From a virus: a stretch of 64,000 nucleotides of DNA. The notes beneath the pieces were generated by a model. That model ran no database searches. It was not told the DNA's origin and saw only the letters and a list, made by a program, of their open reading frames with translations. The DNA lies in the IMG/VR virus record IMGVR_UViG_3300022591_000004, positions 1-64,000 of that record; one strand, written 5' to 3'. Positions within the stretch are counted from its first letter, which is position 1. Each line of letters opens with the position of its first letter. The position numbers and the translations under genes were made by a program. Shown here one piece after another: positions 3,066-49,843 of this stretch.

Positions 3066-3617
3066 TTAACGTACATTGTTGACCCCTATCGGCGCCTCTG
3101 GCAACTCGTGCATGGGTCGCAGTTCTGTACGAGGAACATACCACGTGCTCTCGTTGTACTTCCACTCTGCTCTCTTGGCATCTTTTCCATACATCCATCC
3201 AAGGGCGGTATAGGGAGCACCCTTCCATTCAGGGCCGATTCTCTTCGTTTTACGTCCTAGACCACCTGCCATCAGTACATAGATGAGCTCATCGCTATCT
3301 CTGCTGGTGATGCGAAGGCCCCGTACTGCATCGGAAAATACTGGGAACTGTGGTGGAAAGGCATATCTCACCTCTCCAAAGCCTGGAATATCTAACTCTG
3401 TCTTGAAAGTATTCTCAGAGGGCACGAAATCTTTTAGGCCCAGCATTCTAGCGAAGGCAATCTCACTACCCGCGCAAATCATATGTTGGAAGGCTTCCCA
3501 TACATCGCCTTCGGAATAATTGACATTAGCCTCTGGACGCGATAAAAAGCGTAGCTGTCTCTCCCAGCCTACCCGTGCGGCTACTGCTTCCTCTTCTACA
3601 CTCAAAAAATAATCCAC
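3066..3617 (-). CDS. hypothetical phage protein
   Basis: 183-aa ORF, GTG start with GGGG RBS. Confidence 0.7.
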   Translation of the reverse strand: MDYFLSVEEEAVAARVGWERQLRFLSRPEANVNYSEGDVWEAFQHMICAGSEIAFARMLGLKDFVPSENTFKTELDIPGFGEVRYAFPPQFPVFSDAVRGLRITSRDSDELIYVLMAGGLGRKTKRIGPEWKGAPYTALGWMYGKDAKRAEWKYNESTWYVPRTELRPMHELPEAPIGVNNVR

Positions 3618-3745
3618 GTTTCCCCTTCTTCCTGTGCGATAGTTGCATAATCCTTTAACTCTTGCAGCTTCTCACTCTTCTTCTCCGTCACCTGTTCAGC
3701 AACAGAAATCATTGCTCGTAGGGCGGTAATTGATAAAGACTCCAT
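3602..3745 (-). CDS. small hypothetical protein (47 aa), probably leaderless
   Basis: Manually translated MESLSITALRAMISVAEQ...; TACTGT -10 lies 6 nt before the ATG. Confidence 0.55.
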   Translation of the reverse strand: MESLSITALRAMISVAEQVTEKKSEKLQELKDYATIAQEEGETWIIF

Positions 3746-3838
3746 ACCTGCACAGTATCACAGGGCGCCGAATTTCATAAACTCGGCTACTACTTCTGCA
3801 CAATGAGCGATACCTGTTACTGACACCTGGCCTCAATC

Positions 3839-3963
3839 CTGAGAATTGCCTGAATTAACCCTGGGGGGTGTCTGTGTGTGTAGATAGCCTGTGGATAACT
3901 CGTTGTGGACAACACGGTGTGGATATGTCGGTGCTTGACACTTATTCAGCCTAGTATTACTGT
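3839..3963 (+). promoter_or_regulatory. Composite module 0: CTGAG tandem, three DnaA-box-like sites, sigma70 promoter
   Basis: CTGAGA 3839 and CTGAAT 3850; TGTGGATAA 3890, TGTGGACAA 3904, TGTGGATAT 3918; TTGACA 3935-3940, 17 nt, TACTGT 3958-3963. Confidence 0.8.
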
Positions 3964-4007
3964 GCTCTTAGTGGACAACACGGTTCACTAATTAGACGGG
4001 GGACACA

Positions 4008-4265
4008 ATGGCAAAGGTAGACATGCCAGGCGTTCGTAGCTTGCAGAAGCTATGGACAACTATGGTCGAGCAAGGACACGACCCTATCACAGCGGGTCAG
4101 TGGATTAACGGCGCATTTGGCGCAGATTACGAAATCTGCGACTTCTGCAACAAGTACGGCGCGGATGTTTACGAGTACGACATGGGCTCGACCGCAATTT
4201 GCTCGACCTGCGAGGACAACCAACCAACAATCAACGACCTAGTGAAAATGGAGGTGGAGGCGTGA
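4008..4265 (+). CDS. hypothetical early protein with CxxC...CxxC zinc ribbon
   Basis: 85-aa ORF directly after promoter; GGGGG RBS. Confidence 0.7.
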   Translation: MAKVDMPGVRSLQKLWTTMVEQGHDPITAGQWINGAFGADYEICDFCNKYGADVYEYDMGSTAICSTCEDNQPTINDLVKMEVEA

Positions 4266-4438
4266 GCGCCTTCACCTTCCCACGCACCGACAAGACCTAC
4301 AAGGTTACTGTCGAATTCAGCTTCTACGCCGAGGACGAAACCGAGGCGCAGGAAATAATCAAGTACCAGATTCGACGCCCAATCAACACCGACCTAGTTT
4401 CGGTGGACGATGTGACGATGGTCGAGGTTCCCGAGTGA
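4262..4438 (+). CDS. hypothetical early protein
   Basis: GTGA overlap with previous stop; GGAGG RBS. Confidence 0.65.
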   Translation: MSAFTFPRTDKTYKVTVEFSFYAEDETEAQEIIKYQIRRPINTDLVSVDDVTMVEVPE

Positions 4439-4580
4439 AGCTAGCTCTAGTGTTGGGGGCGGTTCTCACCGCCCTCATCACACACCTGTTCTTCACCCCT
4501 CACTATGGAAACTGTCAGCCAACTGACATCGGCAAGACCTGTACACTCACTCATTACACTCTCAAGGAAGGCAAATAATC

Positions 4581-4742
4581 ATGGACCCACGATTTACAAT
4601 TGCAGATACTTATAAGAAATTGCAAAAGGCGGGAATTTCTTATAAGGAGTTCGAGGCAGAACTAAACAACTGCGGCGGACCCGAGAACGCTTTTAGAATC
4701 TGCTGGAAGTACCAAGACATGGCAGAGGATTCCTGCGCATGA
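4581..4742 (+). CDS. hypothetical early protein (53 aa)
   Basis: Manually translated MDPRFTIADTYKKLQ...; AAGGAAGG RBS. Confidence 0.6.
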   Translation: MDPRFTIADTYKKLQKAGISYKEFEAELNNCGGPENAFRICWKYQDMAEDSCA

Positions 4743-4974
4743 TGACCGATTTAGAGTGGATTCTCTTTCAGCTCAATGGAGTTCTGACGGGAAGCCTGAC
4801 CACCGAGCAGAAGCTCGCCAAGCTCACCGAGCTAGTGGCTAATTGCTCAGAGGAGATAGGGCTAAGCGTATGATTATCCTAGTAGCGATAGCAGTAGGAG
4901 TCTTCGGGGGGTGGCTAGGCTCACTAGCCCCCTCAGTAGAGGATGAAGCACAGATTTAGCCCCCGCTAAAACGA

Positions 4975-5010
4975 CAAGCCCGAGAGCCGTTCCTCTCGGG
5001 TTTTGTTGTT
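4975..5010 (+). terminator. Rho-independent terminator
   Basis: CCCGAGAG-CCGTTC-CTCTCGGG followed by TTTTGTTGTTT. Confidence 0.85.
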
Positions 5011-5012
5011 TC

Positions 5013-5227
5013 TTGAGACTTTCCTGAGAATTACCTGAGCGCAAAAGTTTGTGTTGGTGGTTGATATGTGTGGTGTATGTGCCTATGCCAGCCAGCGGCT
5101 TGTCTCGCTACGCTCGCCAACACAAACATTCGGGCAATTCGGACATTTCAGGCTGTGGATAAGTCGCTGTGTATAACTAGCTGTGGAGAGAGAAGGTACT
5201 TGCATTCTCTACTAATGAGAGTAATGT
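5013..5227 (+). promoter_or_regulatory. Composite module A: 11-bp tandem, IR element, 9-bp tandem, DnaA boxes, promoter
   Basis: TTGAG/CTGAG/CTGAG at 5013/5024/5035; IR 5047-5127; CATTCGGGC-AATTCGGAC-ATTTCAGGC 5127-5153; boxes 5154, 5168, 5182; TTGCAT 5200, 16 nt, TAATGT 5222. Confidence 0.85.
5047..5127. repeat. Inverted-repeat-bounded element A (81 bp)
   Basis: GTTTGTGTTGG 5047-5057 ... CCAACACAAAC 5117-5127, a perfect 11-bp IR. Confidence 0.9.
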
Positions 5228-5274
5228 TCCTCTTGTCGCTAAACGGCGAATTTTAATACAGAAAGGCAAGGCTC

Positions 5275-6267
5275 ATGGCTCACGATTTAGAACAGGGTAA
5301 CGGTCAGACCGCATTTGCACTACGCGGAGAACCTGCATGGCACAATCTAGGAACCGTATTCGACAAGGATGCGGACATCACAACGAAGCAAATGTTAGAC
5401 CTCGCACATCTCTCCAATTGGAATGTTCGTCTAGAGCCCGTTTCCTATCCTGAGGGCTACACCACTGTCAAGGACGCTTATTCGGTTGTCCGTAATCACC
5501 CATTCAACGGCAATCCCGATGTTCTGTCGGTCGTAGGCGAGCGCTACAAGGTTGTCCAAAATGAGGAACTCTTCTCATTCGGTGACGGCATGCTAGACGG
5601 TGGCGGGGCATGGGAATCGGCGGGTTCTATCAAGGACGGTCGTGTCGTGTTCGGCTCAATCGTTATTCCGCGCGAATTTATCCTCGACCCTAGCGGAATT
5701 GCCGATAAGACAGTTTCCTATCTGCTTGTCCATACATCACATGACGGCTCGACCGCTCTACAGGCGAATGTAACGCCAATTCGCGTGGTCTGCCAGAATA
5801 CCCTCAATATCGCGCTAGGCTCTAGCAAGCAATCTTTCAAGGTTCGCCACACTCAGACAATCGGCGGACGCATGGAAGAGGCACGTCGTGTACTAGGCTT
5901 AACATTCTCCTACATGGACGATTTCCAGAAGCTGGCGCAAAATCTATTCGAGAGCGAGATTACTAATGCCCAATTCGACAAGCTTGTTGCAGGGCTCTAT
6001 CCAAAGCCTGATGAAGCTAGCAAAATGGCAACCACTAAGTACACCGACAAGCTCGACACCATCCACAATCTCTATAAAGTTGCAGCAACGCAAGACGGAA
6101 TTCGTGGCACGAAATGGGGAGCGCTCAACGCGCTCACAGAACGAGTTGATTATTTCCGTACAAGCCGAACAGGAGACAATAAGTCTCTCATGGCTTCTGC
6201 CAGCGGATTCGACGTCCAGACCAACGCTGAAAAGAACAAGATTCTAAAAGCGGTCATGGCACTGTAA
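5275..6267 (+). CDS. DUF932 / phage-plasmid TIGR03299-like protein
   Basis: EPAWHNLG, YKVVQNEELF, ESAGSIKDGRVVF, SHDGS...TPIRVVCQNTL, HT and GTKWGALNALTE motifs. Confidence 0.9.
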   Translation: MAHDLEQGNGQTAFALRGEPAWHNLGTVFDKDADITTKQMLDLAHLSNWNVRLEPVSYPEGYTTVKDAYSVVRNHPFNGNPDVLSVVGERYKVVQNEELFSFGDGMLDGGGAWESAGSIKDGRVVFGSIVIPREFILDPSGIADKTVSYLLVHTSHDGSTALQANVTPIRVVCQNTLNIALGSSKQSFKVRHTQTIGGRMEEARRVLGLTFSYMDDFQKLAQNLFESEITNAQFDKLVAGLYPKPDEASKMATTKYTDKLDTIHNLYKVAATQDGIRGTKWGALNALTERVDYFRTSRTGDNKSLMASASGFDVQTNAEKNKILKAVMAL

Positions 6268-6276
6268 CAAGATAAG

Positions 6277-6303
6277 TAGAGGGGCGGGGAAACCCGCCTC
6301 TCA
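6277..6303 (+). terminator. GC hairpin, terminator-like
   Basis: AGAGGGGCGGG-AAA-CCCGCCTCTC right after the DUF932 stop; no U-tract. Confidence 0.6.
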
Positions 6304-6518
6304 CCTAATTCTCAGACACGCCCGAGCGCGTTGCAGAAAAGTTTGTGTTGGGTGGCTGGGTGGGGTGGTGGTTGTTTCCTTTAATACTTTCGTAGCTCGC
6401 TTACTCGCTTCGACACAAACATTCGCAAAACGGACATTTCGGGCTGTGGATAACCTGGTGTGGATAAAGATATACACAGGGCGAGAGTTATTGACTTCTA
6501 CGATAACAAGAGTATTGT
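6299..6518 (+). promoter_or_regulatory. Composite module B
   Basis: TCTCAC 6299 and TCTCAG 6310; IR 6341-6420; AAAACGGAC-ATTTCGGGC 6427-6444; TGTGGATAA 6445 and 6459, ATATACACA 6470; TTGACT 6491, 16 nt, TATTGT 6513. Confidence 0.85.
6341..6420. repeat. Inverted-repeat-bounded element B (80 bp)
   Basis: GTTTGTGTTGG ... TCGACACAAAC. Confidence 0.85.
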
Positions 6519-6556
6519 CCTCTCTGTAAGGCAAATAACTACTACAGAAGGAGAGA

Positions 6557-6724
6557 ATGATGATTCAGTCACCATTCACGTCACAGGAAGTCCGTAAGCT
6601 GTTCGTCCTCGTCTGCGCTTCACCAGATATTGAGATGAAGGAAGCCATCGAGCTTCTCAACAAGTTGGATTCTTTGCATATCGCCACCAAGGGCGTCGAA
6701 TATTATGAAAGTCAGGGGGTGTGA
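6557..6724 (+). CDS. hypothetical early protein (55 aa)
   Basis: Manually translated MMIQSPFTSQEVRKLF...; AAGGAG RBS directly after promoter B. Confidence 0.65.
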   Translation: MMIQSPFTSQEVRKLFVLVCASPDIEMKEAIELLNKLDSLHIATKGVEYYESQGV

Positions 6725-7007
6725 GGTGAAAACACTGGCGGATTTTAAGCGCGCACTTACTGTAGGCACTGAAGTAGAACTACTTAGCTTAGCAAAGAAC
6801 GTCAAGGGTGGGCGCTTGCAGGTTGGTATGGTGCGCCGAGTCACCAAGGCAGATACCACTGGCGTGTACTTGCAAACCGAAGGACTCGAAGGTCGAGGTT
6901 CATTCTTAGGTTGGGATAAGGCTAAAGATTGGGTGTTTGACGGCGATAGGGCTATTAATATCGTCTGGGGCTATTCATACCGAGTATTGAATAAAGAGGG
7001 CAGCTAA
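6705..7007 (+). CDS. hypothetical early protein (probable start GTG 6726)
   Basis: ORF followed by a hairpin. Confidence 0.7.
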   Translation: MKVRGCEVKTLADFKRALTVGTEVELLSLAKNVKGGRLQVGMVRRVTKADTTGVYLQTEGLEGRGSFLGWDKAKDWVFDGDRAINIVWGYSYRVLNKEGS

Positions 7008-7019
7008 TACTTAGCTAAG

Positions 7020-7042
7020 TTGAGGGGCGAAAGCCCCTCAGC
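7020..7042 (+). terminator. GAAA-tetraloop hairpin, terminator-like
   Basis: TGAGGGGC-GAAA-GCCCCTCA. Confidence 0.65.
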
Positions 7043-7239
7043 CAATTCTCAGGAAAATGTTTGTGTTGACCGAGCGAGCAGCGAGGGCAATCAGTGGCTG
7101 GCATGGGCATATACCTGCATATATCAACCGACACAAACAATTCGGACATTTCAGACAAATTGGGCTGTGGATAACTCGTTGGGGATAAAGTTATACACAA
7201 GGGGAGAGTATTTGACATATCTATAGAAAGCGATAGTCT
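7036..7239 (+). promoter_or_regulatory. Composite module C
   Basis: CCTCAG 7036 and TCTCAG 7047; IR 7059-7138; AATTCGGAC-ATTTCAGAC-AAATTGGGC 7139-7165; TGTGGATAA 7166, TGGGGATAA 7180, TTATACACA 7191; TTGACA 7212, 16 nt, TAGTCT 7234. Confidence 0.85.
7059..7138. repeat. Inverted-repeat-bounded element C (80 bp); interior is an inverted homolog of element A
   Basis: GTTTGTGTTGA ... CCGACACAAAC; interior CGAGCGAGCAGCGAG...TGGCTGGCATGGGCATATAC...ATATCAACC aligns to the reverse complement of the A interior. Confidence 0.88.
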
Positions 7240-7286
7240 TCTCTTTGTAAGGCAAACAACCACTCTAGAAAGAGAGTAAAGGCAAA

Positions 7287-7535
7287 ATGGCAAAACTTCT
7301 ACCACGCTTTGAGGTAAAGGTTACCGCAGAGTATCACTACGAGTCCGAGGACTTTGATACCGAAGGCAACCTTACCCGCGAAACTGTCGAGAATGACGCA
7401 AGTATCGCTTTCTACGACAATGTTAATAATGCCGAAATCTACTCAACCGAGATTACCAAGTCTTGGTTCGAGTGCGAGGATTGCGGCGAAGATGATGTCG
7501 AAGAAGACCACGAGTGCGAAAACGAGGCTGAGTAA
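7287..7535 (+). CDS. highly acidic hypothetical early protein
   Basis: 82 aa, D/E-rich, C-terminal CEDC...HEC. Confidence 0.7.
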   Translation: MAKLLPRFEVKVTAEYHYESEDFDTEGNLTRETVENDASIAFYDNVNNAEIYSTEITKSWFECEDCGEDDVEEDHECENEAE

Positions 7536-7768
7536 TGACACGCAAGGACTACCAGCTTATTGCTAAGACTATTTCAGACTTCCGCTACGAGGGTACGGAG
7601 TTCCGTGACCCTGTAATGATTGCCCTGATTGACCGTCTTGGGGCGCGTATTTGTGAGGCGTTGGAAAACGAAAATCCGCGCTTTAACGCCGATAAATTTC
7701 TAGAGGCTATGGAATACGGAAAACGCCCTACCACCGATGAAATCGTCATGCGAGCGTGGGGGTCGTAA
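7535..7768 (+). CDS. conserved phage hypothetical protein (MTRKDY...NPRFxxxKF)
   Basis: MTRKDYQLIA and ENPRFNADKFLEA motif. Confidence 0.75.
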   Translation: MTRKDYQLIAKTISDFRYEGTEFRDPVMIALIDRLGARICEALENENPRFNADKFLEAMEYGKRPTTDEIVMRAWGS

Positions 7769-7817
7769 TGAAAACCACCGAAGACTACTACAAGGCTTAT
7801 TACAAGGGAGAAATAGC

Positions 7818-8018
7818 GTGAAAAAAGGCATTAAAGAAGTCCTTCAGATTGCTCTAGAAGAAGCTGACGACTATAGCTACGTCCTAACACAGGAACAAGC
7901 CGCAGAACATCGGGGCGCAAAATACGCTCTATACGAGGTTTATCAGTATCTCTTTGATGAGTCATACCAGACCGAGCGTGACAAGCGCCTAGAGGCTAAA
8001 CAGAGTTCTCCCGCGTAA
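7818..8018 (+). CDS. hypothetical early protein
   Basis: GTG start with GGGAG RBS; followed by terminator. Confidence 0.6.
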   Translation: MKKGIKEVLQIALEEADDYSYVLTQEQAAEHRGAKYALYEVYQYLFDESYQTERDKRLEAKQSSPA

Positions 8019-8050
8019 GTTATTTGCCTTTCTGACGCGGTTGAGATGGG

Positions 8051-8090
8051 ACATAGAGCGGAGACTACCCTTCGCTCTTTGTTCATTTTA
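8051..8090 (+). terminator. Rho-independent terminator
   Basis: AGAGCGGAG-ACTACC-CTTCGCTCT followed by TTGTTCATTTT. Confidence 0.65.
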
Positions 8091-8118
8091 GTAGAAAATT
8101 CGCGCCTAAGCGCCAAAA

Positions 8119-8218
8119 GTTTGTGTTGGTCACTCCTTGATATGGTCATATATGTGCATAATGTGCTGTGCTGGCTATCACACGTGACAAAACCCACCCA
8201 CCCGCTACCAACACAAAC
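8119..8218. repeat. Inverted-repeat-bounded element D (100 bp)
   Basis: GTTTGTGTTGG 8119-8129 ... CCAACACAAAC 8208-8218, perfect IR. Confidence 0.9.
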
Positions 8219-8237
8219 ATTGCCAGCCTTGTCAAAT

Positions 8238-8280
8238 CTGAGAGTTAGCTGAGAGAGTTATCCACAGAGAGTTATCCACA
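8238..8280. promoter_or_regulatory. CTGAGA tandem and two perfect DnaA boxes in reverse orientation
   Basis: CTGAGA 8238/8249; TTATCCACA 8258 and 8272. Confidence 0.85.
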
Positions 8281-8335
8281 GGCTGCGAGCGCCCAAGTGG
8301 GCAAATATCGACAAATTGACATGTAAATAAAGAGA

Positions 8336-8351
8336 TGTTTCACGTGAAACG
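8336..8351. promoter_or_regulatory. parS-like centromere site
   Basis: TGTTTCACGTGAAACG; 15/16 match to the bacterial parS consensus TGTTTCACGTGAAACA, with a perfect 14-bp palindrome. Confidence 0.8.
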
Positions 8352-8441
8352 CTGATTCGGCTACTATTTAGCTGAGTAGAGAGAGTAAGCGGTGGTAAGA
8401 CCAGATTGCTGGGGGTATCCCGAGTGTTCCTATCGCATAGC

Positions 8442-8642
8442 CTGAGAAGAAGCTGAGTGAGAGCTGAGAGAGACTATCCCTATCCCCTTCCCTATCCCTA
8501 TACCTATATAAAGAAAGGCTCAGAATCGCTTAGGCGCGAAATTTTTATAGGGGGTTGTGGATAACTGCTTGTGGATAAACACCTGTGGATAACTATTTAT
8601 TTATCGTGGTGTGTTGCATTATCCCTTTTTATCCCCTAGTGT
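8442..8642 (+). promoter_or_regulatory. Composite module E: CTGAG x3, three perfect DnaA boxes, promoter
   Basis: CTGAG 8442/8453/8464; TGTGGATAA 8556/8570/8584; TTGCAT 8614, 17 nt, TAGTGT 8637. Confidence 0.85.
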
Positions 8643-8729
8643 CCTGTCTATCAGGTTATGAGTGATAACAAGTAAGCGATTAGGTAGCCCTAGTCCACCT
8701 GATACACCTACCACAACGAAAGGCAACAC

Positions 8730-9023
8730 ATGAACCTCACACAAAAGCAAAATGTCGCTAAAAGCCTGAAAAACGCTAAGGGTATCGCGTGGGATACCTG
8801 CCATAAGATTTATATTCTTATGGACGATAATCAAATGGAACTCATGCGCGGTTATGGCTATGACCCATTGGTTAGCTCAGTAGATACTACCCCTGACGAG
8901 ATGTTGGCTCTTATCGAGGATTGGTTCGACAATTCGTGCGACCTACGTTTCATTGACTCTGTAACTACTGACACCGAGAATCCTAACGCGGGATTTCTTA
9001 CTGTTGTAGGGCAGGATTTCTAA
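8730..9023 (+). CDS. hypothetical early protein
   Basis: 97 aa; GAAAGG RBS; WDTCHKIY and SCDLRFI motifs. Confidence 0.75.
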   Translation: MNLTQKQNVAKSLKNAKGIAWDTCHKIYILMDDNQMELMRGYGYDPLVSSVDTTPDEMLALIEDWFDNSCDLRFIDSVTTDTENPNAGFLTVVGQDF

Positions 9024-9355
9024 TGAGCTATATAAAGAGCCTATTAGAGGATATTAACGCCGAGTGCGAGAACGAAAATATCCCTGTCAAGGCGTTTATT
9101 GCTTATCTAGATAATGACCATATCCCGCTAGGGGAGTGGCAAGACCATATTCCTAACTTCCATGAGGCTTACGTAGGTAAGTACGATTCGGTCGCGGATT
9201 TTGCTTCTGATATGGCTGAGCGCTTGGGCGTATTTACTGAGGCTAGTAGTTATGACTCTTTCTTGGTTCGATACTTTGATTTCGAGGCTTGGGGGCGCGA
9301 TTTATTACAGGGTGATTACTGGGAGATTGACGGTTACTACTTTGGGAGTTACTAA
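9023..9355 (+). CDS. ardA: ArdA-like antirestriction protein (C-terminal domains only)
   Basis: Acidic; FHEAYVGKYDS..DFA...LVRYFDFEAWGRDL...YF matches the ArdA C-terminal signature. Confidence 0.75.
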   Translation: MSYIKSLLEDINAECENENIPVKAFIAYLDNDHIPLGEWQDHIPNFHEAYVGKYDSVADFASDMAERLGVFTEASSYDSFLVRYFDFEAWGRDLLQGDYWEIDGYYFGSY

Positions 9356-9356
9356 G

Positions 9357-9542
9357 ATGAATACACGTCACCACCACGATACCGTCAAGATTCTGTATGA
9401 CGAGTCGGTGCTATGCCTACCGTGTTGGAACGGTCAAGAGGGCGCGATTATCAGCACCGAAGAACGTTGCCCCGAGTGTAGTGGGGCGGATATTCAGGAC
9501 AAGATTACCGAGTGCGATAGTTGCGGAGAGGTTATTAACTAA
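9357..9542 (+). CDS. small Cys-rich zinc-finger protein
   Basis: CLPC, CPEC, CDSC. Confidence 0.6.
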   Translation: MNTRHHHDTVKILYDESVLCLPCWNGQEGAIISTEERCPECSGADIQDKITECDSCGEVIN

Positions 9543-9543
9543 G

Positions 9544-9813
9544 ATGAATAAATGTTACGAATGCGGTTGGTCGGATTCTGATATGGGATTCTTCACCGAA
9601 GAAGCGGGCAAACTGTATTGCTCACTTCACCGCTCGCTATCCATGCAAGAGCTTTCCGAGCTGACCCATGAGACTCAGGTCGAGCGCTTTGGGTTCTGCA
9701 CCTGTGAGGAACAAGAGAACTTTCCTTACTCAGATTGTCCTAGACCCGAGCCCGAAGAAAAAAACGACTGGTCACTCTACGGAGTGCAGAAAGGATACGA
9801 AGACCATGCTTAA
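9544..9813 (+). CDS. hypothetical Cys-containing acidic protein
   Basis: MNKCYECG...FCTCEEQENFPYSDC. Confidence 0.6.
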   Translation: MNKCYECGWSDSDMGFFTEEAGKLYCSLHRSLSMQELSELTHETQVERFGFCTCEEQENFPYSDCPRPEPEEKNDWSLYGVQKGYEDHA

Positions 9814-10060
9814 AGTAAGCTCAGTAAAGCACGAAGACACCGCTTGGGACAAGTTTATTAACCTTACTTATGAAGGTAATGAGTACCGCGCTATTCTCCA
9901 TTGGGATAAGTGGGAAGGGTACGAACTGGTGAGCTTTACAAACCCTAAGGGTGAATGGATTGACACGCCTGAGTGGGCTGTTGATTGGGAAGAACACAAC
10001 GAGAAGAGCCTTAACTATCTATTAGATGAGTTGAGCGACGAAAAACTAAAGGAGAACTAA
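9806..10060 (+). CDS. hypothetical early protein
   Basis: MLKVSSVKHEDTAW...; Trp-rich and acidic. Confidence 0.65.
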   Translation: MLKVSSVKHEDTAWDKFINLTYEGNEYRAILHWDKWEGYELVSFTNPKGEWIDTPEWAVDWEEHNEKSLNYLLDELSDEKLKEN

Positions 10061-10062
10061 AC

Positions 10063-10494
10063 ATGGGATACACACACTACTTTCAGATTCATAAAGAGAT
10101 TGCACCTACGCGCTGGAGCTACTTTATCAAGGGCGCAAATACTATCCTAAGCCACGCATGGGACTTTGCCCTAGAGGGTGAGCTTAATAGTGAGGTCGTA
10201 GTTATCAACGGCATAGGTGAAGAGGGGCATGAGACCCTGTTTATTAGTAGGACTAATACACGCTGGGAATTCGTCAAGACCGCCAAGAAACCTTATGATG
10301 ATGTGGTTACGGCTATCTTAATCCTAGCTCGTTATGTCTTTGATGAAGACTCCTTCTCCCTATCTTCTGACGGTTCATGGTCAGATTGGTCGCTAGGGCG
10401 CGAATTATTTACTGAGGCTATGTTCTTAGAACCTGCCGAGCAAACCGTATTCGGCAACACCAAGCACGTCTTTCCTGAGAGGACTCTCGCATAA
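10063..10494 (+). CDS. conserved phage hypothetical protein (MGYTHY...KT.KKPYD family)
   Basis: MGYTHYF, HETL, FVKTAKKPYD, SSDG motifs; AAGGAG RBS. Confidence 0.8.
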   Translation: MGYTHYFQIHKEIAPTRWSYFIKGANTILSHAWDFALEGELNSEVVVINGIGEEGHETLFISRTNTRWEFVKTAKKPYDDVVTAILILARYVFDEDSFSLSSDGSWSDWSLGRELFTEAMFLEPAEQTVFGNTKHVFPERTLA

Positions 10495-10973
10495 TGCACA
10501 CACTACATTGGATTGCGGTAGAGGCAGATAATGAACCTGAGGCTTTCTCAAAGGCACAAACAGAGATGATTAGCGCGGAAGGCATGTGGTGGGACTGGTA
10601 TGACAATTCTATTGGCGGTCGCTGGGCTAATAATGATTGGTGCAAAATCTATCAAGGCAAAGATATCTTGATTGGTTTAGACCATGTTAAGACTAATCGT
10701 AAAGAAGAAGTTGAGAGAGCGTTAGAGAAGATAGACCTATCTGAGTTTGAGTCTCAACTTAATAATTATGACGGAGAAGATGTAGTCACTACCGATTACT
10801 CCCTGAACCTATGGCGTATTAAAAAGCTCGCGCAGTTATTAGACGGAGAGTGGAATTGCGACTCTTACTTCTATGACATGGTTTATGGAAGCGCGAATAT
10901 GGCAGACCTATTAAAGCGCATAGAGTCTGACCCTGATAAGCAGTTCCTCGTCCCTATTGACTTTCACTTTTAA
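10494..10973 (+). CDS. hypothetical protein (WDWY..GGRW...DFH family)
   Basis: WWDWY..IGGRW and C-terminal VPIDFHF. Confidence 0.75.
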   Translation: MHTLHWIAVEADNEPEAFSKAQTEMISAEGMWWDWYDNSIGGRWANNDWCKIYQGKDILIGLDHVKTNRKEEVERALEKIDLSEFESQLNNYDGEDVVTTDYSLNLWRIKKLAQLLDGEWNCDSYFYDMVYGSANMADLLKRIESDPDKQFLVPIDFHF

Positions 10974-11058
10974 GGAGAACAACAATGAATAACGACGAAA
11001 ATGGTCTAAACATATCTCAGTTTAATATCATAGATATAAAAGTGGAAGCAGGAGAATA

Positions 11059-11223
11059 ATGGAGAAGTTTTATACACCCGCGCAGGTAGCCGAGGCTATG
11101 TCTGTCACAAGAGAGACTATCTATAAGCTGATTAAAGAGGGCAAACTGAACTCATATAAGTTTGGCGGAATGGTACGCATATCAGAGTCACAACTAAGAG
11201 AAGCATTGGAGAGTACCAAGTGA
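11059..11223 (+). CDS. excisionase/BldC-like winged-HTH DNA-binding protein (HTH_17 type)
   Basis: Manually translated MEKFYTPAQVAEAMSVTRETIYKLIKEGKLNSYKFGGMVRISESQLREALESTK; AGGAG RBS. Confidence 0.85.
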   Translation: MEKFYTPAQVAEAMSVTRETIYKLIKEGKLNSYKFGGMVRISESQLREALESTK

Positions 11224-11480
11224 ACTCAACACAAACCACGCCGATTGGCGCGACAGTAATGATTCGCTGGAAGGATATGCCTGAGGAGTTACAGTTTCAG
11301 GAATATATCTCTTTTGGGGAGTACGACGAAGATAGCGAGCAAGATGGTTTTGGCGTTGATGATTTCTTTATCTTCAGCTATGTAGATAGCCTAGAGGAGT
11401 TGCAACGCATGGAAGGAAAGCTAGATAATCTTAATTTTGATTGGTTACTAACAGAAATCGGAGAAGTGCATTATGCGTAA
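11220..11480 (+). CDS. acidic hypothetical protein
   Basis: 86 aa; GTGA overlap. Confidence 0.65.
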   Translation: MNSTQTTPIGATVMIRWKDMPEELQFQEYISFGEYDEDSEQDGFGVDDFFIFSYVDSLEELQRMEGKLDNLNFDWLLTEIGEVHYA

Positions 11481-12375
11481 GTTATTACTAGCCTTAATAG
11501 TGGGTGCGACCCTTGTCTCACCTGCCTATGCTGGTACACCAACGACACCTACGGTTGTCCTTGTGGATAGCGGAGTTAATGACTCGTTGTTTAGCGCGAA
11601 TATCGTTTATGAAGCGTGTTTTATTGAGAATACCACCTGCGCTAACGGCAAAAATTCTATGGAAGGCGTGGGGTCTGCTCAGCAAGTTACCACATCTACT
11701 AATGCTGAGGTTAATCACGGAGAAAATATGCTCTCTATCATGGTTAAAGTTAATCCTAGTATTAAAGTAATTCCTATAAAAATTGTGGGAGTTACGGCGT
11801 TAGGGAATCCCTATCTGTATTCTTTAGCCTCTGTTAAATCCTCGTTGGATTGGGTCGTGGCTAATCAAGCTAAGTTTAATATTGGAGTAGTTAATATCTC
11901 TCAAGGCGCGATATTCGCTGGGTGTGCCGTCCCTGCTGGATTACAGCAAGATATTAACATCTTACAATCAGAGAACGTTCAGGTCGTCGCCGCAACAGGT
12001 AACACCAGTAACAGAGCTCAAATGTTTGCACCTGCCTGCTTGCCTAACGTCATCTCAGTAGGAGCAACGGATAATCCGTGGGGTGGTATGCAACCTTACG
12101 CATGGGACTCAAAAGCTAATCCTAGTATTGGTCTATACAGCAACGGAAACAGTTCTACAACCCTTTACTCGAATGCTCGATACTTTGTTACTCAGCTTAA
12201 TGGAGTGGTGAAGTTTATGGCTGGCACGTCCAACGCCACAGCCGCAGTATCAGCATGGCTTAGCCTCAATAGAGGGGCAAATTGGACAACAACATACAAT
12301 AATCTGATAACATCAGCCTCGGGAACAGCAACCAACCAATGGCTTACGGGTCACTACCTATTCATTAACTCATAA
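11473..12375 (+). CDS. secreted S8 (subtilisin-like) serine peptidase
   Basis: Signal peptide MRKLLLALIVGATLVSPAYA; catalytic D (VDSG), H (NHG), oxyanion AATGN, S (GTSNA). Confidence 0.88.
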   Translation: MRKLLLALIVGATLVSPAYAGTPTTPTVVLVDSGVNDSLFSANIVYEACFIENTTCANGKNSMEGVGSAQQVTTSTNAEVNHGENMLSIMVKVNPSIKVIPIKIVGVTALGNPYLYSLASVKSSLDWVVANQAKFNIGVVNISQGAIFAGCAVPAGLQQDINILQSENVQVVAATGNTSNRAQMFAPACLPNVISVGATDNPWGGMQPYAWDSKANPSIGLYSNGNSSTTLYSNARYFVTQLNGVVKFMAGTSNATAAVSAWLSLNRGANWTTTYNNLITSASGTATNQWLTGHYLFINS

Positions 12376-12385
12376 GGAGAGAGAC

Positions 12386-12655
12386 ATGGCTAAGAAAATA
12401 GAAAAGTCGCTAGACGCGTCACTTACTAAGAACACCTCAGTAGAGCGGGGCGGTGCATGGCTTCTCACCGTAGAAGATGACAATGGCATTAACCACTCAG
12501 CTTGGTCTAATCTTTCAGCCGCTAAACGGTATCTAAAAGCGTACGTTATGGAAAACACGACACGTAAGTCTATTAAGATGGAAATTAAAGCAACAGATGA
12601 AAAAGAAAAGCCAACTCACTTAACAGGTTCTATTGCATGGAAGGTAAATGCTTAA
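12386..12655 (+). CDS. hypothetical basic protein
   Basis: 89 aa; AAGGAG RBS. Confidence 0.7.
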   Translation: MAKKIEKSLDASLTKNTSVERGGAWLLTVEDDNGINHSAWSNLSAAKRYLKAYVMENTTRKSIKMEIKATDEKEKPTHLTGSIAWKVNA

Positions 12656-12840
12656 TGAAAAAAGTAATCCTAGTGGCAACCGCTTTGACCGCGTTTTCTA
12701 TCTCATCAGCGCAGGCAAGCACCCCTAATCTTGCTGGCTATATCTGTGTGGACAAGCAAGGCGTACACCATATGTGGCAGGACGCTTTTAACGGCTCTAC
12801 ATACTGCAAGTTAATTAAGAATCCTAATAAGAAGAGCTAA
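12637..12840 (+). CDS. small secreted protein (probable start MKKV at 12655)
   Basis: Signal peptide MKKVILVATALTAFSISSAQA. Confidence 0.6.
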   Translation: MEGKCLMKKVILVATALTAFSISSAQASTPNLAGYICVDKQGVHHMWQDAFNGSTYCKLIKNPNKKS

Positions 12841-12841
12841 C

Positions 12842-12949
12842 ATGGGATTCGAAAAAGACCCGATTATCCCCGATGAAGATTGGGGCGCTACCGAACCGTT
12901 TACAGGATTCGGAGATGATGAAGATGATTACGGTGAAGACGAAGAATAA
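12842..12949 (+). CDS. tiny highly acidic protein (35 aa)
   Basis: MGFEKDPIIPDEDWGATEPFTGFGDDEDDYGEDEE. Confidence 0.5.
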   Translation: MGFEKDPIIPDEDWGATEPFTGFGDDEDDYGEDEE

Positions 12950-12953
12950 ATAA

Positions 12954-12983
12954 TAAAGCCCCTGATTTATCAGGGGCTTTTTG
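12954..12983. terminator. bidirectional terminator at convergence of early island and RNR
   Basis: AAAGCCCCTGAT-TT-ATCAGGGGCTTTTT. Confidence 0.85.
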
Positions 12984-15017
12984 CTATTGGTTATCTTTAA
13001 TTAATCTTACTTCACACGCGTCTGTTGTGCAGTAAGCCTCGCCCACCGCGTCAGCCGCCATACCAGCATAGACACCAGCAAAATCAATAGGGAAGAGAGT
13101 CATAGTCGCCTCTTCATAATCTTCTTCACTAATCTGAGTGTATGGCATCTGTGGATAAGTAGTGTTTCCTGAAGGCAAGAATGAGACGGTCTTGAGTTGT
13201 CCTTCGTGCATATGAAGAACCCTCTTAATCTCATTACTCTCTGTCTCAGGGTCAAAAGAGACCGTTACTGATACAGAATTATCTGACCACTCGTACTGTG
13301 CGGCGGCGGCTAGATGAATCTTCTCGTAAATAGAGACTTCCTTCTCAGAACGGAGAGCGTCCGACTTGACAGGGAAGAACACTACTGAGGTTGTCTTAGG
13401 AGACTCACTTGCTGGTTCGACACGATAGTTAGCCATCTTAAAGAGAGGCAACATAGGGTCAGAGTTAGCAAAGCGAATTGCACGAAGGAAGAACTTACCG
13501 CCAACAGACCAGTGCACACCTGGGCTCTCACCTGCGAGGATAGAGACTGTTCCTGATGGCTTGACAGTTGTCATCTTGATTGACTCACGAATACCGAGCC
13601 ACTCTGAGTAACCCTTATCGTATTCCTTGACAACAACGTAGCCCTCATCGAGCCACTTGCGAAGAACAGGGAGACCCTTATTATCAGAGAAGTTAGCAAC
13701 ACCTGAGACAGAGGTTCCGATACGACGGTTACGTTGCATGATGGCGTTGGTTTCTTCCCAGTGGGTAGGCAAGAGAGTCACGGTCTTGGCATAGAGATAA
13801 GCAAACTTGAGAGTGCGCTTAAAATCATCTAAGTTATCGTGACGATTAAGATAGGTCTCAACTAGAGTGCAACACTCATACGATTCAAGAGATTGTTCAG
13901 CGCATGGGTTGTATCCCATAGCACGCCAGTCCTTGTTGTTGATACCATCCTTGAGACGACCATACTTTCGTGTGACATCCATCCAGATAACACCTGGCTC
14001 TCCATTGTGGGCGATACCATCCACAATAGCGGAGAGGTCTTGACCTACCGATACCTCAACAGAGTTGTTAGACATCCACGCCCAGCCTGGGTTCTTAGGG
14101 TCATAAGAGTTGCGCTCAGGGAACTTCTCGGCGTTCTTAAGATTGAGGAAGTCTTGGTCGTCAATGCGACCCATCAACAACTCAGCTGAACGACGAACGT
14201 TTCCTGATACAACACAAACGCCAATCATATTTCCGATGTCAGCAATATCCACGCGAGTCAGCTTCTGACCTGCTCGGCCATCGAACATCTTAGTAATGTG
14301 GTTGTGAAGTTTCTCTAGTGGCTCGTGTCCCGCGGCTGTTCCTCCAAAGGTTTTAATCGGAGTACCTGCTGGGCGGATTTCTGAGTAGTCAAAGATAGGC
14401 TTCTTCGTATCTGGCTTAAGGTAGGAATTGAGGAGGGCGGTAAGTGATTCCACCCAGCCTTCTCTGGTGTCAGGAATGACATATGTATCTCCTTGGGTAG
14501 GGGCAAAAATTGCGAAGTCTTTGTCCGCACCTTTGTCGTCGAATCCAACACCTACGCCGAGCATCGACGCCTCCATGAGGAAAGCAAAAGGCTTGGCTGG
14601 GTTGAGCTTGGTCATAGAATCTGTGGAAACAAAGGCACAGTTTTGGAGCGCGGCTGAGTTGCGTTGCTCATTAACAAGCGGAGTACCCATGACCCATAGT
14701 CCGCGTCCTGGTGGTGTCCACTTGAGGTTCCATAGTCGGTCGAAAGCCTCTTTAGCGGAGGCAGCTGCCTTGGAGTCTGACCATGGAAGTCGGTTCAACT
14801 TGGCGTGGTCTTTCTGAAGCGAATACATACCGTTGATGACTCGCTCGCAGACATCTGTCCACGTCTCTTTAGTGCCATCTTCTTTGAGTCGGGAATAGGT
14901 ACGAAGGAAAGTAATCTCTCCTACCGAGTTGCCTGCCGCGTCTTGGTATCCCCACGGAACCTTCTTGTCCCGATATCCTGTCAGGAAATCTTCTGTCAGA
15001 CGGAAAGACAAACCCAT
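12984..15017 (-). CDS. nrdJ: class II (B12-dependent) ribonucleoside-triphosphate reductase
   Basis: PPGRGLW, ALQNC, GNVRRSA, NPCAE, TVKPSGT and C-terminal YCTTDAC motifs. Confidence 0.95.
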   Translation of the reverse strand: MGLSFRLTEDFLTGYRDKKVPWGYQDAAGNSVGEITFLRTYSRLKEDGTKETWTDVCERVINGMYSLQKDHAKLNRLPWSDSKAAASAKEAFDRLWNLKWTPPGRGLWVMGTPLVNEQRNSAALQNCAFVSTDSMTKLNPAKPFAFLMEASMLGVGVGFDDKGADKDFAIFAPTQGDTYVIPDTREGWVESLTALLNSYLKPDTKKPIFDYSEIRPAGTPIKTFGGTAAGHEPLEKLHNHITKMFDGRAGQKLTRVDIADIGNMIGVCVVSGNVRRSAELLMGRIDDQDFLNLKNAEKFPERNSYDPKNPGWAWMSNNSVEVSVGQDLSAIVDGIAHNGEPGVIWMDVTRKYGRLKDGINNKDWRAMGYNPCAEQSLESYECCTLVETYLNRHDNLDDFKRTLKFAYLYAKTVTLLPTHWEETNAIMQRNRRIGTSVSGVANFSDNKGLPVLRKWLDEGYVVVKEYDKGYSEWLGIRESIKMTTVKPSGTVSILAGESPGVHWSVGGKFFLRAIRFANSDPMLPLFKMANYRVEPASESPKTTSVVFFPVKSDALRSEKEVSIYEKIHLAAAAQYEWSDNSVSVTVSFDPETESNEIKRVLHMHEGQLKTVSFLPSGNTTYPQMPYTQISEEDYEEATMTLFPIDFAGVYAGMAADAVGEAYCTTDACEVRLIKDNQ

Positions 15018-15160: not shown

Positions 15161-16633
15161 TCAGCCTTCGCTGATATCTTTAATAATTTTGGTGGTCTGC
15201 TCTTCATTTAAGCCGCCGTTTGGCAGCTCTCGAAGGGCTTGCGCCTTGTCTCCAAAGATGTTAGAAAGCACACCAGCAGACCCATTTTTTGCCTCTACAG
15301 TCATGCGAATAAACGAGGCTGAGTCGTCCAAATCCTTGGTAGTTTTGATGAGCTTAAACAATCTGTCAATCTCTTGGGAAACGTTTGGGTCTGCGTATCC
15401 ACCGTTCATTTCTTCAGTAAAACGCATAAAAGCGACTCTTTGACCCTGCATTTCAATCATTGCGTTAATCAAACTCTTAAGTTGGTCTTTAGTCTTTACC
15501 TCAATAGGAAGGTTGAAAGCGCACATTGTTTGCGGCTTAAAAGCAGGGCAGTTGGCGGCTACAAAACAGGTATCGCACTGGCGAATTGTGCTACTTTGCG
15601 AGCGCACAACAGGAACGTCTTTGATGATGTCTTGACCATCTTCATCGGTCTCTACAACGGTCTTAAAGTCGTATCCGAAGACGGGTAAATTGCCCATTTC
15701 TTCTGGATTTCGGCTCTCAACTTTCCGCATGCCAATACCCTTGTTATCGCTTACGCTGGGGGTAGTTTCCCCACTATCCTCCACATCGCTCCACTCGCTG
15801 TTATGCGATAGGAAGCCGTCTTCTGCGCCACTCATGTTCATCCTCGCTTCGTATTGTTCGTATGACCATACAGCCAGACGACAGACTTCTTGTGGGTCAT
15901 CTTCCATAATCAGGTCGTAGCTCAAGCCCGCCTTTTCATACACCTTGGCGTATCGTACCCGAGCTTGCTCCTTCATACTCTTGTTGTATCTAACAAGCTT
16001 AGTACCGTCCCAGACAATCGTTTCACCGTGGAGCATGGGAGCCAGCCATGACAGGGTACTGGCGGTCTCTACCTTGACCTGACGCAGGTTGTAGGGCTTA
16101 GCGGTGTTTATGGCGTGGAAGCGGGTTCCTCGGGCTGTATAGCCCCGTGTAAGGGCGGCTAGCTGGGTCTCGTGCTCAATGTCGTCACCCATGATTCCTA
16201 TGTCTAGGTAGTGCTCGACCATCTTCTTAAAACCGTCTATGCCTGTCTGGGGCTGCCAAACTGGTTGGAACTTGGAGGGCGGAACTTCATTCCAGCAGGT
16301 CTTCCTCTGCTCTGCAATAAACTCAGGAGTGAGCATGGGGTGGACAACCTCATTAAAGCTCACAATCCTGTCTATGTTATTGGCGATGAACTCCTCGTAC
16401 AGGGCGCAAAATTCTTCTAGCTCATCCTGTGTGAGCTTTTCGACCTTGGGGATACCTGCATGGGCGTAGATATGGGTATCGGGCGTAAAGTAATTCTCTA
16501 AAAGGTATGCCTTAGTTTTGGGTAACCCACGACGATATAGGCGCCAGAAACTAACCCCAACATGGTTGGCGGTGGTGGACTCTAGAAGGGTACGGTTGGA
16601 TGGAACTTCCGCACCTAAGTAAATGATTCGCAT
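15161..16633 (-). CDS. hypothetical protein; possible TGT-like TIM-barrel N-terminus and Cys4 C-terminal domain
   Basis: FHAIN...VETASTLSWL resembles the H(G/A)xG...(D)SxSW motif of phage TGT-like proteins; CDTC...CPAF...CAF. ORF certain, function tentative. Confidence 0.5.
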   Translation of the reverse strand: MRIIYLGAEVPSNRTLLESTTANHVGVSFWRLYRRGLPKTKAYLLENYFTPDTHIYAHAGIPKVEKLTQDELEEFCALYEEFIANNIDRIVSFNEVVHPMLTPEFIAEQRKTCWNEVPPSKFQPVWQPQTGIDGFKKMVEHYLDIGIMGDDIEHETQLAALTRGYTARGTRFHAINTAKPYNLRQVKVETASTLSWLAPMLHGETIVWDGTKLVRYNKSMKEQARVRYAKVYEKAGLSYDLIMEDDPQEVCRLAVWSYEQYEARMNMSGAEDGFLSHNSEWSDVEDSGETTPSVSDNKGIGMRKVESRNPEEMGNLPVFGYDFKTVVETDEDGQDIIKDVPVVRSQSSTIRQCDTCFVAANCPAFKPQTMCAFNLPIEVKTKDQLKSLINAMIEMQGQRVAFMRFTEEMNGGYADPNVSQEIDRLFKLIKTTKDLDDSASFIRMTVEAKNGSAGVLSNIFGDKAQALRELPNGGLNEEQTTKIIKDISEG

Positions 16634-48365: not shown

Positions 48366-49843
48366 TTGCCCACCAACCCACTATTTGTGACCATCTGCGT
48401 ATTAACACGAAGGTCAATAGTCACACTGACATCTGTTCTAATAGGAATCATATCCCTAGTGAACGCTAAATGCGTTACGTTTACGCCAGAAAGAACGCCT
48501 ACAAATTTTTGCTGACCTAAGTCTACACGCACGTAGGCCATTTTTAAGTACCCAATATTAGCTGTAATTTTTCCACCGATACCGATAGCATCTTTTCCAT
48601 TTGTAGACGCATACAGATACTCTAGGTCAGCCTCAGTACCATAAGTAAGAAGGTCAATAACTTTTTGCTCAATTTCAGTATCAGAACCGCTTGGAGTCCC
48701 AATATTGTAATAATCCAAATAGCTTTTTTTAATTACTGGCAGTGTATCTAATTTCTTTTTAGAAGAGCCAGCATTAGCAAGCTCAATAAGTTTATTGTTA
48801 GCGATACTAGCGCCAATATCCATATCGCCTTTCATAGACGCAAAGTCATTAGTGCGGTCTAACCGAAGAGTAAAGGTCAACGAAGAATTACCTGTTACAA
48901 ATCCTGTAGATGCTGCAGAGGGGTCAGATGCGTTTGGAGTGATGTTAGAGTTCGTAGACGTATCTTGACTAAACGTTTCTGGGTTCCAAATAAACTGAAA
49001 TCCATAATTATTTGTTGTTGGAGGAGGGGCTGCCTTTCCTTTTTTAGAAGATGCAGTTGTTGGAGTTCCCGTAGTTGTAGTTCCTAAATAAGGTTGGTAC
49101 ATCCAAATGCGCCCACGACGAGTTTGGTGAAAGTTATCTAACCTTTTATTAGTAGCGTCAGGCGCAATATCATAAGGGTCTACAGGTAGGCTCCATGCGT
49201 GAGGAGGCAAGTTCCACATAAAATTATCGGGTGGATTTTCTGGAGGTAACTCTTGAGTTTGAGGTTGCGCAGGAGGGACCTTCTTTGCTGATGTTCCCGA
49301 AAACAAAGTATTAGTGTTTTTATTAATTAGGCTATTATTTTTAGCGAGAGCGGACTTTAAGCTGTTTACCTTAGTTTGAATTTTTGACGTTTGGTTAAGC
49401 AGGTAAGTAATGTCGCTGTTCAACAACGCTTTGTCAGGAGAGCTTAATGTGCCACTATACGCAGAGGTTCCTACACGAGCGTGTATCTGTCTGTTATACG
49501 TGTTAGTTATAGTGGAGCTTGGGACAGGAGTAGCTAAGGTGTAGTTGGCGCCCCAGTCACTGTCGGTTACTATATTTTGCTCCCAAATGATTACTTTGTT
49601 GTAGGCAGCAATCTGTTCTTCCATAGTAGTAGCGCTAGCTCTATCACTAGGAAAAAGGTCATTAGAAGGAATTCCGTAGGTGCTTGTAAGCTGAGCATTG
49701 ATAGAGTCGTTCGCTTTAATAAGCGTAGATAGTTTAGTATTAGCTTGTTGAGCTTCCAGCGCTAGTTTGTGTTGGGCGATAGCTTTATCAAGAGTAGTTT
49801 GAACGCTAACGGCGCCCTTTTTTGACGTGTTTATGCTTGACAT
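48362..49843 (-). CDS. tail tube initiator-like protein
   Basis: FQFIWNPE and F....IPIR.DVSV motifs; follows the tape measure. Confidence 0.65.
   Translation of the reverse strand: MSSINTSKKGAVSVQTTLDKAIAQHKLALEAQQANTKLSTLIKANDSINAQLTSTYGIPSNDLFPSDRASATTMEEQIAAYNKVIIWEQNIVTDSDWGANYTLATPVPSSTITNTYNRQIHARVGTSAYSGTLSSPDKALLNSDITYLLNQTSKIQTKVNSLKSALAKNNSLINKNTNTLFSGTSAKKVPPAQPQTQELPPENPPDNFMWNLPPHAWSLPVDPYDIAPDATNKRLDNFHQTRRGRIWMYQPYLGTTTTGTPTTASSKKGKAAPPPTTNNYGFQFIWNPETFSQDTSTNSNITPNASDPSAASTGFVTGNSSLTFTLRLDRTNDFASMKGDMDIGASIANNKLIELANAGSSKKKLDTLPVIKKSYLDYYNIGTPSGSDTEIEQKVIDLLTYGTEADLEYLYASTNGKDAIGIGGKITANIGYLKMAYVRVDLGQQKFVGVLSGVNVTHLAFTRDMIPIRTDVSVTIDLRVNTQMVTNSGLVGN

Follow-up and report, generated by a model that had tools for sequence, protein, structure and literature searches.

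Palindromic elements with conserved inverted end words mark the seams between early gene cassettes of an uncultured lake phage

Do short DNA elements with inverted ends that lie between the early genes of a phage flip in place, or are they fixed? The question is raised by the IMG/VR virus record IMGVR_UViG_3300022591_000004, of which the first 64,000 nucleotides (the window in what follows) form the stretch analysed here. In its early gene array four elements, A to D, of 80 to 100 bp are bounded by the same inverted repeat, and the interiors of some of them are related in opposite orientations. A sequence-only reading of the window had proposed that they are invertible micro-switches upstream of promoters, or else phased protein-looping sites whose arms mix by recombination. 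The practical outcome of our follow-up is negative for the flipping switch. We propose instead, at about even odds, that they are fixed cis-acting boundary or operator elements of the early cassettes, read by a putative factor.

A pattern search of the whole genome, 95,668 bp in length, recovers the four elements exactly where they had been placed (Table 1). Each is bounded by GTTTGTGTYGR and its reverse complement, that is, by inverted GTTTGTGT(Y)G(R) ends; such inverted pairs occur only four times in the genome, and the reversed pattern, searched as a control, gives none. The first eight nucleotides (GTTTGTGT) are identical at all eight ends, and the right end of B carries two changes (…TCGACACAAAC). 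When up to one mismatch is allowed, the 11-mer is found 13 times in the window, compared with 4.1 +/- 2.1 times in shuffles. Outside the array there are three lone exact copies, at 49765-49775 (+), at 62551-62561 (-) and at genome position 84940, beyond the window, where about 0.05 would be expected by length alone; at least one of them lies inside a tail gene.

The interior of A is G/T-rich on its left side and contains a CTCGCT repeat on its right. Its inverted homology to the interior of C stands: at about 75% identity, A and C in reverse complement align over ~57 interior columns with a local score of 42, which none of 500 shuffles reaches, and the alignment of the two in direct orientation is not significant. 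The left part of D is a direct homologue of the left part of A, a relation absent from the sequence-only reading. The resemblance suggested there between the left end of B and the inverted right end of D comes down to a G-run matching at 10 of 11 positions, which is only marginally significant (p about 0.04), and what A and B were said to have in common at the right end is a short CTCGCT-type repeat, without significance when taken alone. We likewise see no target-site duplication: the flanks are conserved module sequence, in which A-runs precede the element and ATT follows. The difference of ~20 bp in length had been taken for two helical turns, as looping sites would have it. Since element lengths in the wider family vary continuously, from 59 to about 146 bp, helical phasing is unsupported; the proposed position upstream of promoters holds, and the ends resemble protein sites.

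Is the orientation of these interiors stable? DNA matching the window was found in runs from a 2023 virome and from 2017 freshwater metagenomes. The two probable source runs gave contigs that cover 3600-8800 with zero differences, and in two independent 2017 lake metagenomes, which contain variant strains, A, B, C and D all have the same orientation. The contigs of these four runs show one orientation only and report no strand-change joint; as contigs drop rare variants, flipping at a low level would go unseen there, but nothing speaks for it. Where the variant contigs do have joints, a coding part between conserved modules has been replaced or skipped. Among related phages, elements at the same position are co-oriented even where the protein of the neighbouring gene is only roughly 60-78% identical: elements 1 and 2 of locus L006 align directly with A and B, and B is matched directly by elements of L022, L026 and L034. 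Inverted matches come from paralogues at other positions, such as C and an extra element of strain L005. As far as contigs and relatives can tell, the inverted state of C with respect to A and D is a fixed old event and not ongoing switching, for which an old rearrangement that became fixed, or a duplication in opposite orientation, appears to be the best explanation.

The elements are by no means confined to one phage. We compared 80 related loci from IMG/VR, anchored on the gene for a DUF945-like protein of 330 amino acids (aa) that lies between A and B, and found elements of the same kind at corresponding places in ~40 of them. About 22 loci carry the end word of the phage studied here, on either side of the anchor gene and farther along the array, and ~18 further loci carry lineage-specific end words (TTGTTGAGTTGG, TTGTTAGGTTGG, TTGTTACGTTGG, TTGTTGGGTTGG or TGTTTGGGTTGG). 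The word comprises 11-13 bp, being (T)GTTTGTGTTGG in the target phage and of the TTGTT-NN-GTTGG type in other lineages. Interiors in most relatives are near-perfect palindromes, each arm having 31-37 matched positions, and form stems 30-37 bp long whose sequence varies by locus. An alignment of 16 elements shows the 12 basal pairs to be almost invariant, and 11 of the 21 consensus pairs to have changed on both sides with pairing kept. The end words are paired head-to-head in most copies and tail-to-tail in the rest, and both arrangements are found after a hairpin with a T-run and before a promoter region. Mismatches between the arms comprise 75 G-T against 56 A-C cases, a bias that is not significant and is drawn from counts that are not independent. 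The lack of a clear strand bias, taken with the conserved basal word, the compensatory changes and the occurrence of both polarities, indicates that the element is a DNA-level palindrome with a sequence-specific basal word, rather than an RNA of one strand.

Polarity can differ within a locus. In L007, L008, L011, L028 and L047 the elements are tail-to-tail 5' of the DUF945-like gene and head-to-head 3' of it; L011 has four tail-to-tail elements and then four head-to-head ones, and gene direction stays constant throughout. Two candidate identities of the end word were rejected: a parS half-site (TGTTT...) agrees at only 5 of 8 positions and is lost in other lineages, and the U-rich tail of the preceding terminator fails because tail-to-tail copies also follow a complete hairpin and T-run.

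The complete genomes of four relatives have the word concentrated in the early array and only rarely a lone copy outside it, and a scan for exact words places elements in 37 stretches on about 33 IMG/VR contigs. More distant AT-rich relatives have no such elements, and the early array of a cultured relative, Streptomyces phage BRock, contains ordinary intergenic hairpins and no palindromes with conserved ends. A scan of 185,579 species genomes for paired end words returned three stretches on two contigs of bacterial metagenome-assembled genomes (MAGs). These have no tblastx similarity to the phage and about two chance matches were expected, from which we conclude that bacterial genomes hold no family of these elements. 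Rfam gives no match at E<=1 in 3500-13000, and our literature searches found no published description of the element.

The target phage falls, with L005, L006, L022, L026 and L034, into a sub-group in which interior palindromy is mostly lost. The arms of A and C match at 22-24 of about 38 positions, compared with 31-37 in relatives, and the sub-group interiors carry instead G- or C-runs by an end, AGCGAG-type repeats and a TTGATATG block, the end words remaining intact. Such an interior is asymmetric, so that a flipped or reverse-placed copy, like C, becomes recognisable; this is why orientation is visible in the target at all. With RNA parameters A folds at -34.3 kcal/mol on the + strand and at -27 kcal/mol on the - strand. 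Little is gained in A-D beyond the 11-bp terminal stem, and the + strand advantage of A and B consists of G-U pairs that join a G-rich arm to a pyrimidine-rich one. Some long elements elsewhere in the family are strings of mini-hairpins (L034:3877-4002, L034:1801-1873 and L036:4770-4845), with GAA/TTC triloops (GCGAAGC / GCTTCGC type) or CTTCGG loops on either strand.

The slot of each element is equally regular: it comes after a terminator-like hairpin and before the next early-promoter module. The modules that follow A, B and C contain AATTCGGAC-type repeats, two or three DnaA-box-like TGTGGATAA-type sites and sigma-70-like -35 and -10 sequences, the -35 starting 70-73 nt downstream of the element in A, B and C alike. 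The -35/-10 pairs, predicted by consensus match only, have a 16-nt spacer in all three.

Table 1. Elements of the early array and the features that surround them, in window coordinates
Feature	Coordinates	Strand	Description
Element A	5047..5127		81 bp; both ends GTTTGTGTTGG / CCAACACAAAC
Element B	6341..6420		80 bp; G-run block at left end, CTCGCT repeat at right end
Element C	7059..7138		80 bp; interior is the inverted homologue of A
Element D	8119..8218		100 bp; CCCACCCACCC block adjoins right end
Intrinsic-terminator-like hairpin	4976..5003	+	T-rich tail; ends the cassette preceding A
GC-rich hairpin	6279..6302	+	GAAA loop, without T-run; after the DUF945-like gene, before B
GC-rich hairpin	7021..7040	+	GAAA loop, without T-run; before C
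Terminator-like hairpin	8055..8078	+	T-rich tail; before D
Promoter module after A	5128..5227	+	AATTCGGAC-type repeats; TGTGGATAA at 5154 and 5168
Predicted promoter, A module		+	-35 TTGCAT at 5200, -10 TAATGT at 5222; element to -35, 72 nt
Promoter module after B	6421..6518	+	TGTGGATAA at 6445 and 6459
Predicted promoter, B module		+	-35 TTGACT at 6491, -10 TATTGT ending at 6518; element to -35, 70 nt
Promoter module after C	7139..7239	+	TGTGGATAA at 7166, variant at 7180
Predicted promoter, C module		+	-35 TTGACA at 7212, -10 TAGTCT at 7234; element to -35, 73 nt
A-B cassette gene	5275..6267	+	330 aa; phrog_1221 match
B-C cassette	6557..7007	+	two small open reading frames (ORFs), no family match
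C-D cassette	7287..8018	+	three small ORFs, no family match

Two further words recur beside the elements. The conserved word CTCGGGCGTGTC, which contains GACAC, adjoins elements in several lineages (as in the flanks of L011 and L026) and is present in the target at 6313-6326, before B, on the opposite strand. CTGAGAATT and its reverse complement occur in either orientation just 5' of elements, at 3837-3853, 5011-5038, 6307-6316 and 7045-7054.

The earlier suggestion that the cassettes between the elements are reshuffled is upheld by comparison across related phages, in which gain, loss and replacement of cassettes are seen at the seams. Strain L005, about 94% identical over the neighbouring 1.5 kb, has an extra 1-kb cassette (L005:3727-4768) with its own end-word element, an inverted paralogue of the A/B type, its own promoter module and four small ORFs, one of them Cys/His-rich and another encoding an XRE-type helix-turn-helix (HTH) protein. 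The insertion follows the terminator (target 5010) and precedes A; from target 5043, which is four bases short of A, the two sequences are homologous again. A variant contig of run X5 joins 6541 to 7034, passing from the B module to the hairpin before C across the coding part. These cases show that the blocks of terminator, palindrome and promoter are, at the level of sequence, the seams at which cassettes are gained, lost and replaced. The phage encodes a general recombination system, with a UvsX-like recombinase and exonucleases, and the exchange presumably proceeds through it.

What could such an element do at these seams? The proposed unit would consist of two inverted recognition words of 11-13 bp and a spacer, perfectly palindromic in most relatives. 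The unit adjoins the terminator of the preceding cassette, and the -35 of the next one follows it at a fixed distance (70-73 nt in A-C). A putative sequence-specific DNA-binding factor, of phage or host origin, would read both words, and the palindromic spacer may permit cruciform or hairpin extrusion, which would bring both words into one stem. Bound or extruded, the element would insulate the transcription units from each other as a roadblock or as a second terminator for read-through; it could also be an upstream operator of the early promoter. The marking of exchangeable modules would be a by-product of its seam position. In the target and its closest relatives, the ancestral foldable interior would have been largely lost and G-runs and AGCGAG repeats gained, with the end words kept. 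The position of the elements, their conservation and compensatory changes, their restriction to the early array, their stable orientation and the cassette indels are all shown by the comparisons above; protein binding, cruciform extrusion and the role as insulator or operator are what we infer from them.

Several points weigh against a boundary or operator element. The reader of the end words would be a hypothetical factor. The interiors of the target fold only modestly beyond the 11-bp terminal stem, which makes a structural role weak there, and canonical terminators already precede most elements, so that a second one is possibly redundant. Nor is such an element needed for every early promoter: none accompanies the first one (about 3935) or the genes after 8730. 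Finally, the junctions of the L005 indel are not both exactly in end words, and the elements accordingly mark seams without being proven crossover points.

The closest known counterpart is the promoter-early stem-loop (PeSL) of T4-type phages, in which units of a terminator hairpin and a sigma-70-like early promoter flank small accessory genes of a plastic early region and whose stem, its authors speculate, is read by a DNA-binding protein (PMC2839356, PMC4122927). The likeness extends to the predicted sigma-70-like early promoter within the repeated unit (A-C), to the adjacent predicted terminator stem-loop, with hairpins by all four elements and, in relatives, a hairpin and T-run abutting them, and to the insertion, deletion and replacement of cassettes at the units between relatives, for which no dedicated recombinase is needed. 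The arrays differ in that a further palindrome of 60-146 bp with lineage-specific conserved ends of 11-13 bp is here placed between terminator and promoter, that operator-like words (pairs of DnaA-box-like sites and AATTCGGAC repeats) are added, and that the target phage is not of the T4 type, its portal being nearest to the BRock group. By this analogy the element is best read as a variant of the PeSL-type regulatory cassettes. A looser parallel, as outlined in PMC2834656, is offered by the homologous regions (hrs) of baculoviruses, imperfect palindromes that act as enhancers through the immediate-early protein IE-1. They too are dispersed in a virus genome, but the likeness is one of analogy only, as hrs form tandem arrays in a eukaryotic virus and have no sequence or protein relation to the phage elements.

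Nowhere in large phages do anti-defence and host-takeover genes turn over faster than in the early region. A punctuation element that recurs across a phage group, with fixed ends and free, self-complementary interiors, marks the exchangeable modules of such a region. It also implies a reader protein, the discovery of which would show how the first-expressed genes are insulated, timed and swapped.

The elements might alternatively act as transcribed RNA hairpins, whether as processing sites of the RNase III type, as 3' stabilisers or as terminators that receive read-through and lack a U-tract. The stems of 30-37 bp in relatives and the compensatory changes that keep them paired would suit such a role, as would the better + strand folds of A and B through G-U pairs; moreover, read-through into the element is likely at B and C, whose preceding hairpins have no T-run. 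In most relatives, however, a canonical hairpin and T-run lie immediately 5' of the element, the strand bias of arm mismatches (75:56) is not significant, some copies fold better on the - strand, and no Rfam family matches. The basal 11-13 bp are, besides, conserved in sequence and not in pairing alone, and the word occurs in either polarity to the loop. On this balance we regard the RNA explanation as unlikely.

A checkpoint for DNA entry, or a decoy for host proteins, is suggested by the first-step-transfer or injection-stop region of T5, where conserved palindromes, spaced inverted repeats and paired DnaA boxes lie in the pre-early/early region (bioRxiv 10.1101/866236). The array is one-directional, includes an ArdA-like gene, probably belongs to the host-takeover end that enters first, and has many DnaA-box-like sites. 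Yet the T5 repeats lie in long untranslated regions with a fixed 52-bp spacer and show no sequence similarity to ours, whereas here each of four successive cassettes is preceded by one element of variable interior, and the elements are distributed among expressed cassettes, not massed in one untranslated stop region. Nor does the assembly, closed by an overlap of 98 bp, show the physical ends of the genome. We consider a role in entry quite improbable.

We attach a similarly small probability to a bolder version of the boundary element, in which folded end words and interiors, read by a putative phage factor, would time or insulate early anti-defence cassettes and at the same time catalyse or target their exchange, as an integron-like platform in a lytic phage without a Tyr/Ser recombinase.

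Could the elements themselves be mobile? Terminal inverted repeats, paralogous interiors in both orientations and presence or absence from strain to strain would fit miniature inverted-repeat transposable elements (MITEs), that is, non-autonomous elements inserted in either orientation. Against this, target-site duplications are absent from flanks made up of conserved module sequence, and the complete genome has no transposase match. The elements keep a constant slot in the module at a fixed spacing to the promoter, their positions are kept across diverged phages with locus-specific interiors, the four copies sit in a single array, the early one, and their interiors are not near-identical. The few bacterial matches (three stretches on two contigs) are unrelated to the phage and at chance level. 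Transposition is in our view very unlikely. Bacterial repetitive extragenic palindromes and the mosaic elements that they form (REP/BIME) are also intergenic, have a conserved stem base and follow genes in either orientation; the phage elements differ from them in being phage-specific and not abundant in bacteria, in lacking a RAYT/Y1 transposase and in being tied to promoter modules.

Folded sites of the integron attC type, at which an unrecognised recombinase would capture or shuffle cassettes, share with the elements the size range (57-146 bp, as imperfect palindromes), the conserved ends, the variable interiors that preserve complementarity and the position between small cassettes in a one-directional array with indels at its seams. 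The attC core RYYYAAC ... GTTRRRY is matched by some tail-to-tail lineage variants, which read ...YYYAAC ... GTTRRRY..., but the likeness is low in information and fails for the target's own word and for head-to-head copies, the prevailing arrangement here and one unlike attC. The arms are symmetric, with no sign of extrahelical bases that would mark a strand, although no search aimed at such bases was made. Given also a promoter-like module and a terminator for each cassette, and no integrase match in the complete genome, an attC-like system is highly improbable.

The weakest explanation is the one from which we set out, a programmed switch whose interior flips between its terminal repeats and so changes expression. 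Inverted ends of 11 bp around a non-palindromic interior, and the inverted homology of C to A and of the extra L005 element to A and B, are what a switch would show, but it is scarcely credible given the single orientation in the contigs of the four runs (rare variants being invisible there), the co-oriented elements of relatives, a predicted promoter 70-73 nt outside the element, the near-perfect palindromes of most family members, in which flipping would change nothing, and a profile search that extends the reported lack of a recombinase in the window to the complete genome, with no match to Phage_integrase PF00589, Resolvase PF00239 or Y1_Tnp while positive controls worked.

The setting of the array is that of an uncultured lake myovirus of ~96 kb. 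The ends of the record overlap by 98 bp, which closes the assembly. A contractile-tail gene set (sheath, baseplate and tail proteins) is accompanied by genes for an SPP1-type portal, a T4-type large terminase, collagen-like fibres, a CHAP/PG_binding_1 lysin, a family-A DNA polymerase, a helicase and a ribonucleotide reductase. The closest portals, at 57% identity, are found in the BRock group of Streptomyces phages. Homologues of the A-B gene are common across actinobacteriophages, and those in Streptomyces phages are annotated as 'DUF945 domain-containing protein'; our best guess for the host is an actinobacterium. All cassettes are on the + strand, within the one long + block that the genome has (about 3.9-12.9 kb); other members of this block are the ArdA-like antirestriction gene (9023-9355, Pfam E 8e-10), a small gene for an HTH protein of the Xis/MerR type (11059-11223) and a subtilase-like gene (11473-12375). 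Further on, at 15161-16633, a homologue of queuine tRNA-ribosyltransferase, the counterpart of BRock gp36, suggests 7-deazaguanine modification of the phage DNA.

Directly after D, a stretch of ~500 bp without genes (8219-8729) contains two inverted perfect DnaA boxes (8258, 8272) and three direct ones (8556, 8570, 8584), a palindrome that resembles parS at 15 of 16 positions (8336-8351), CTGAGAG repeats and CCCTATCCC repeats. Since genes for DnaD-like and DnaC-like loaders, a DnaB-like helicase and a primase are present in the phage, we regard the stretch as a possible replication origin.

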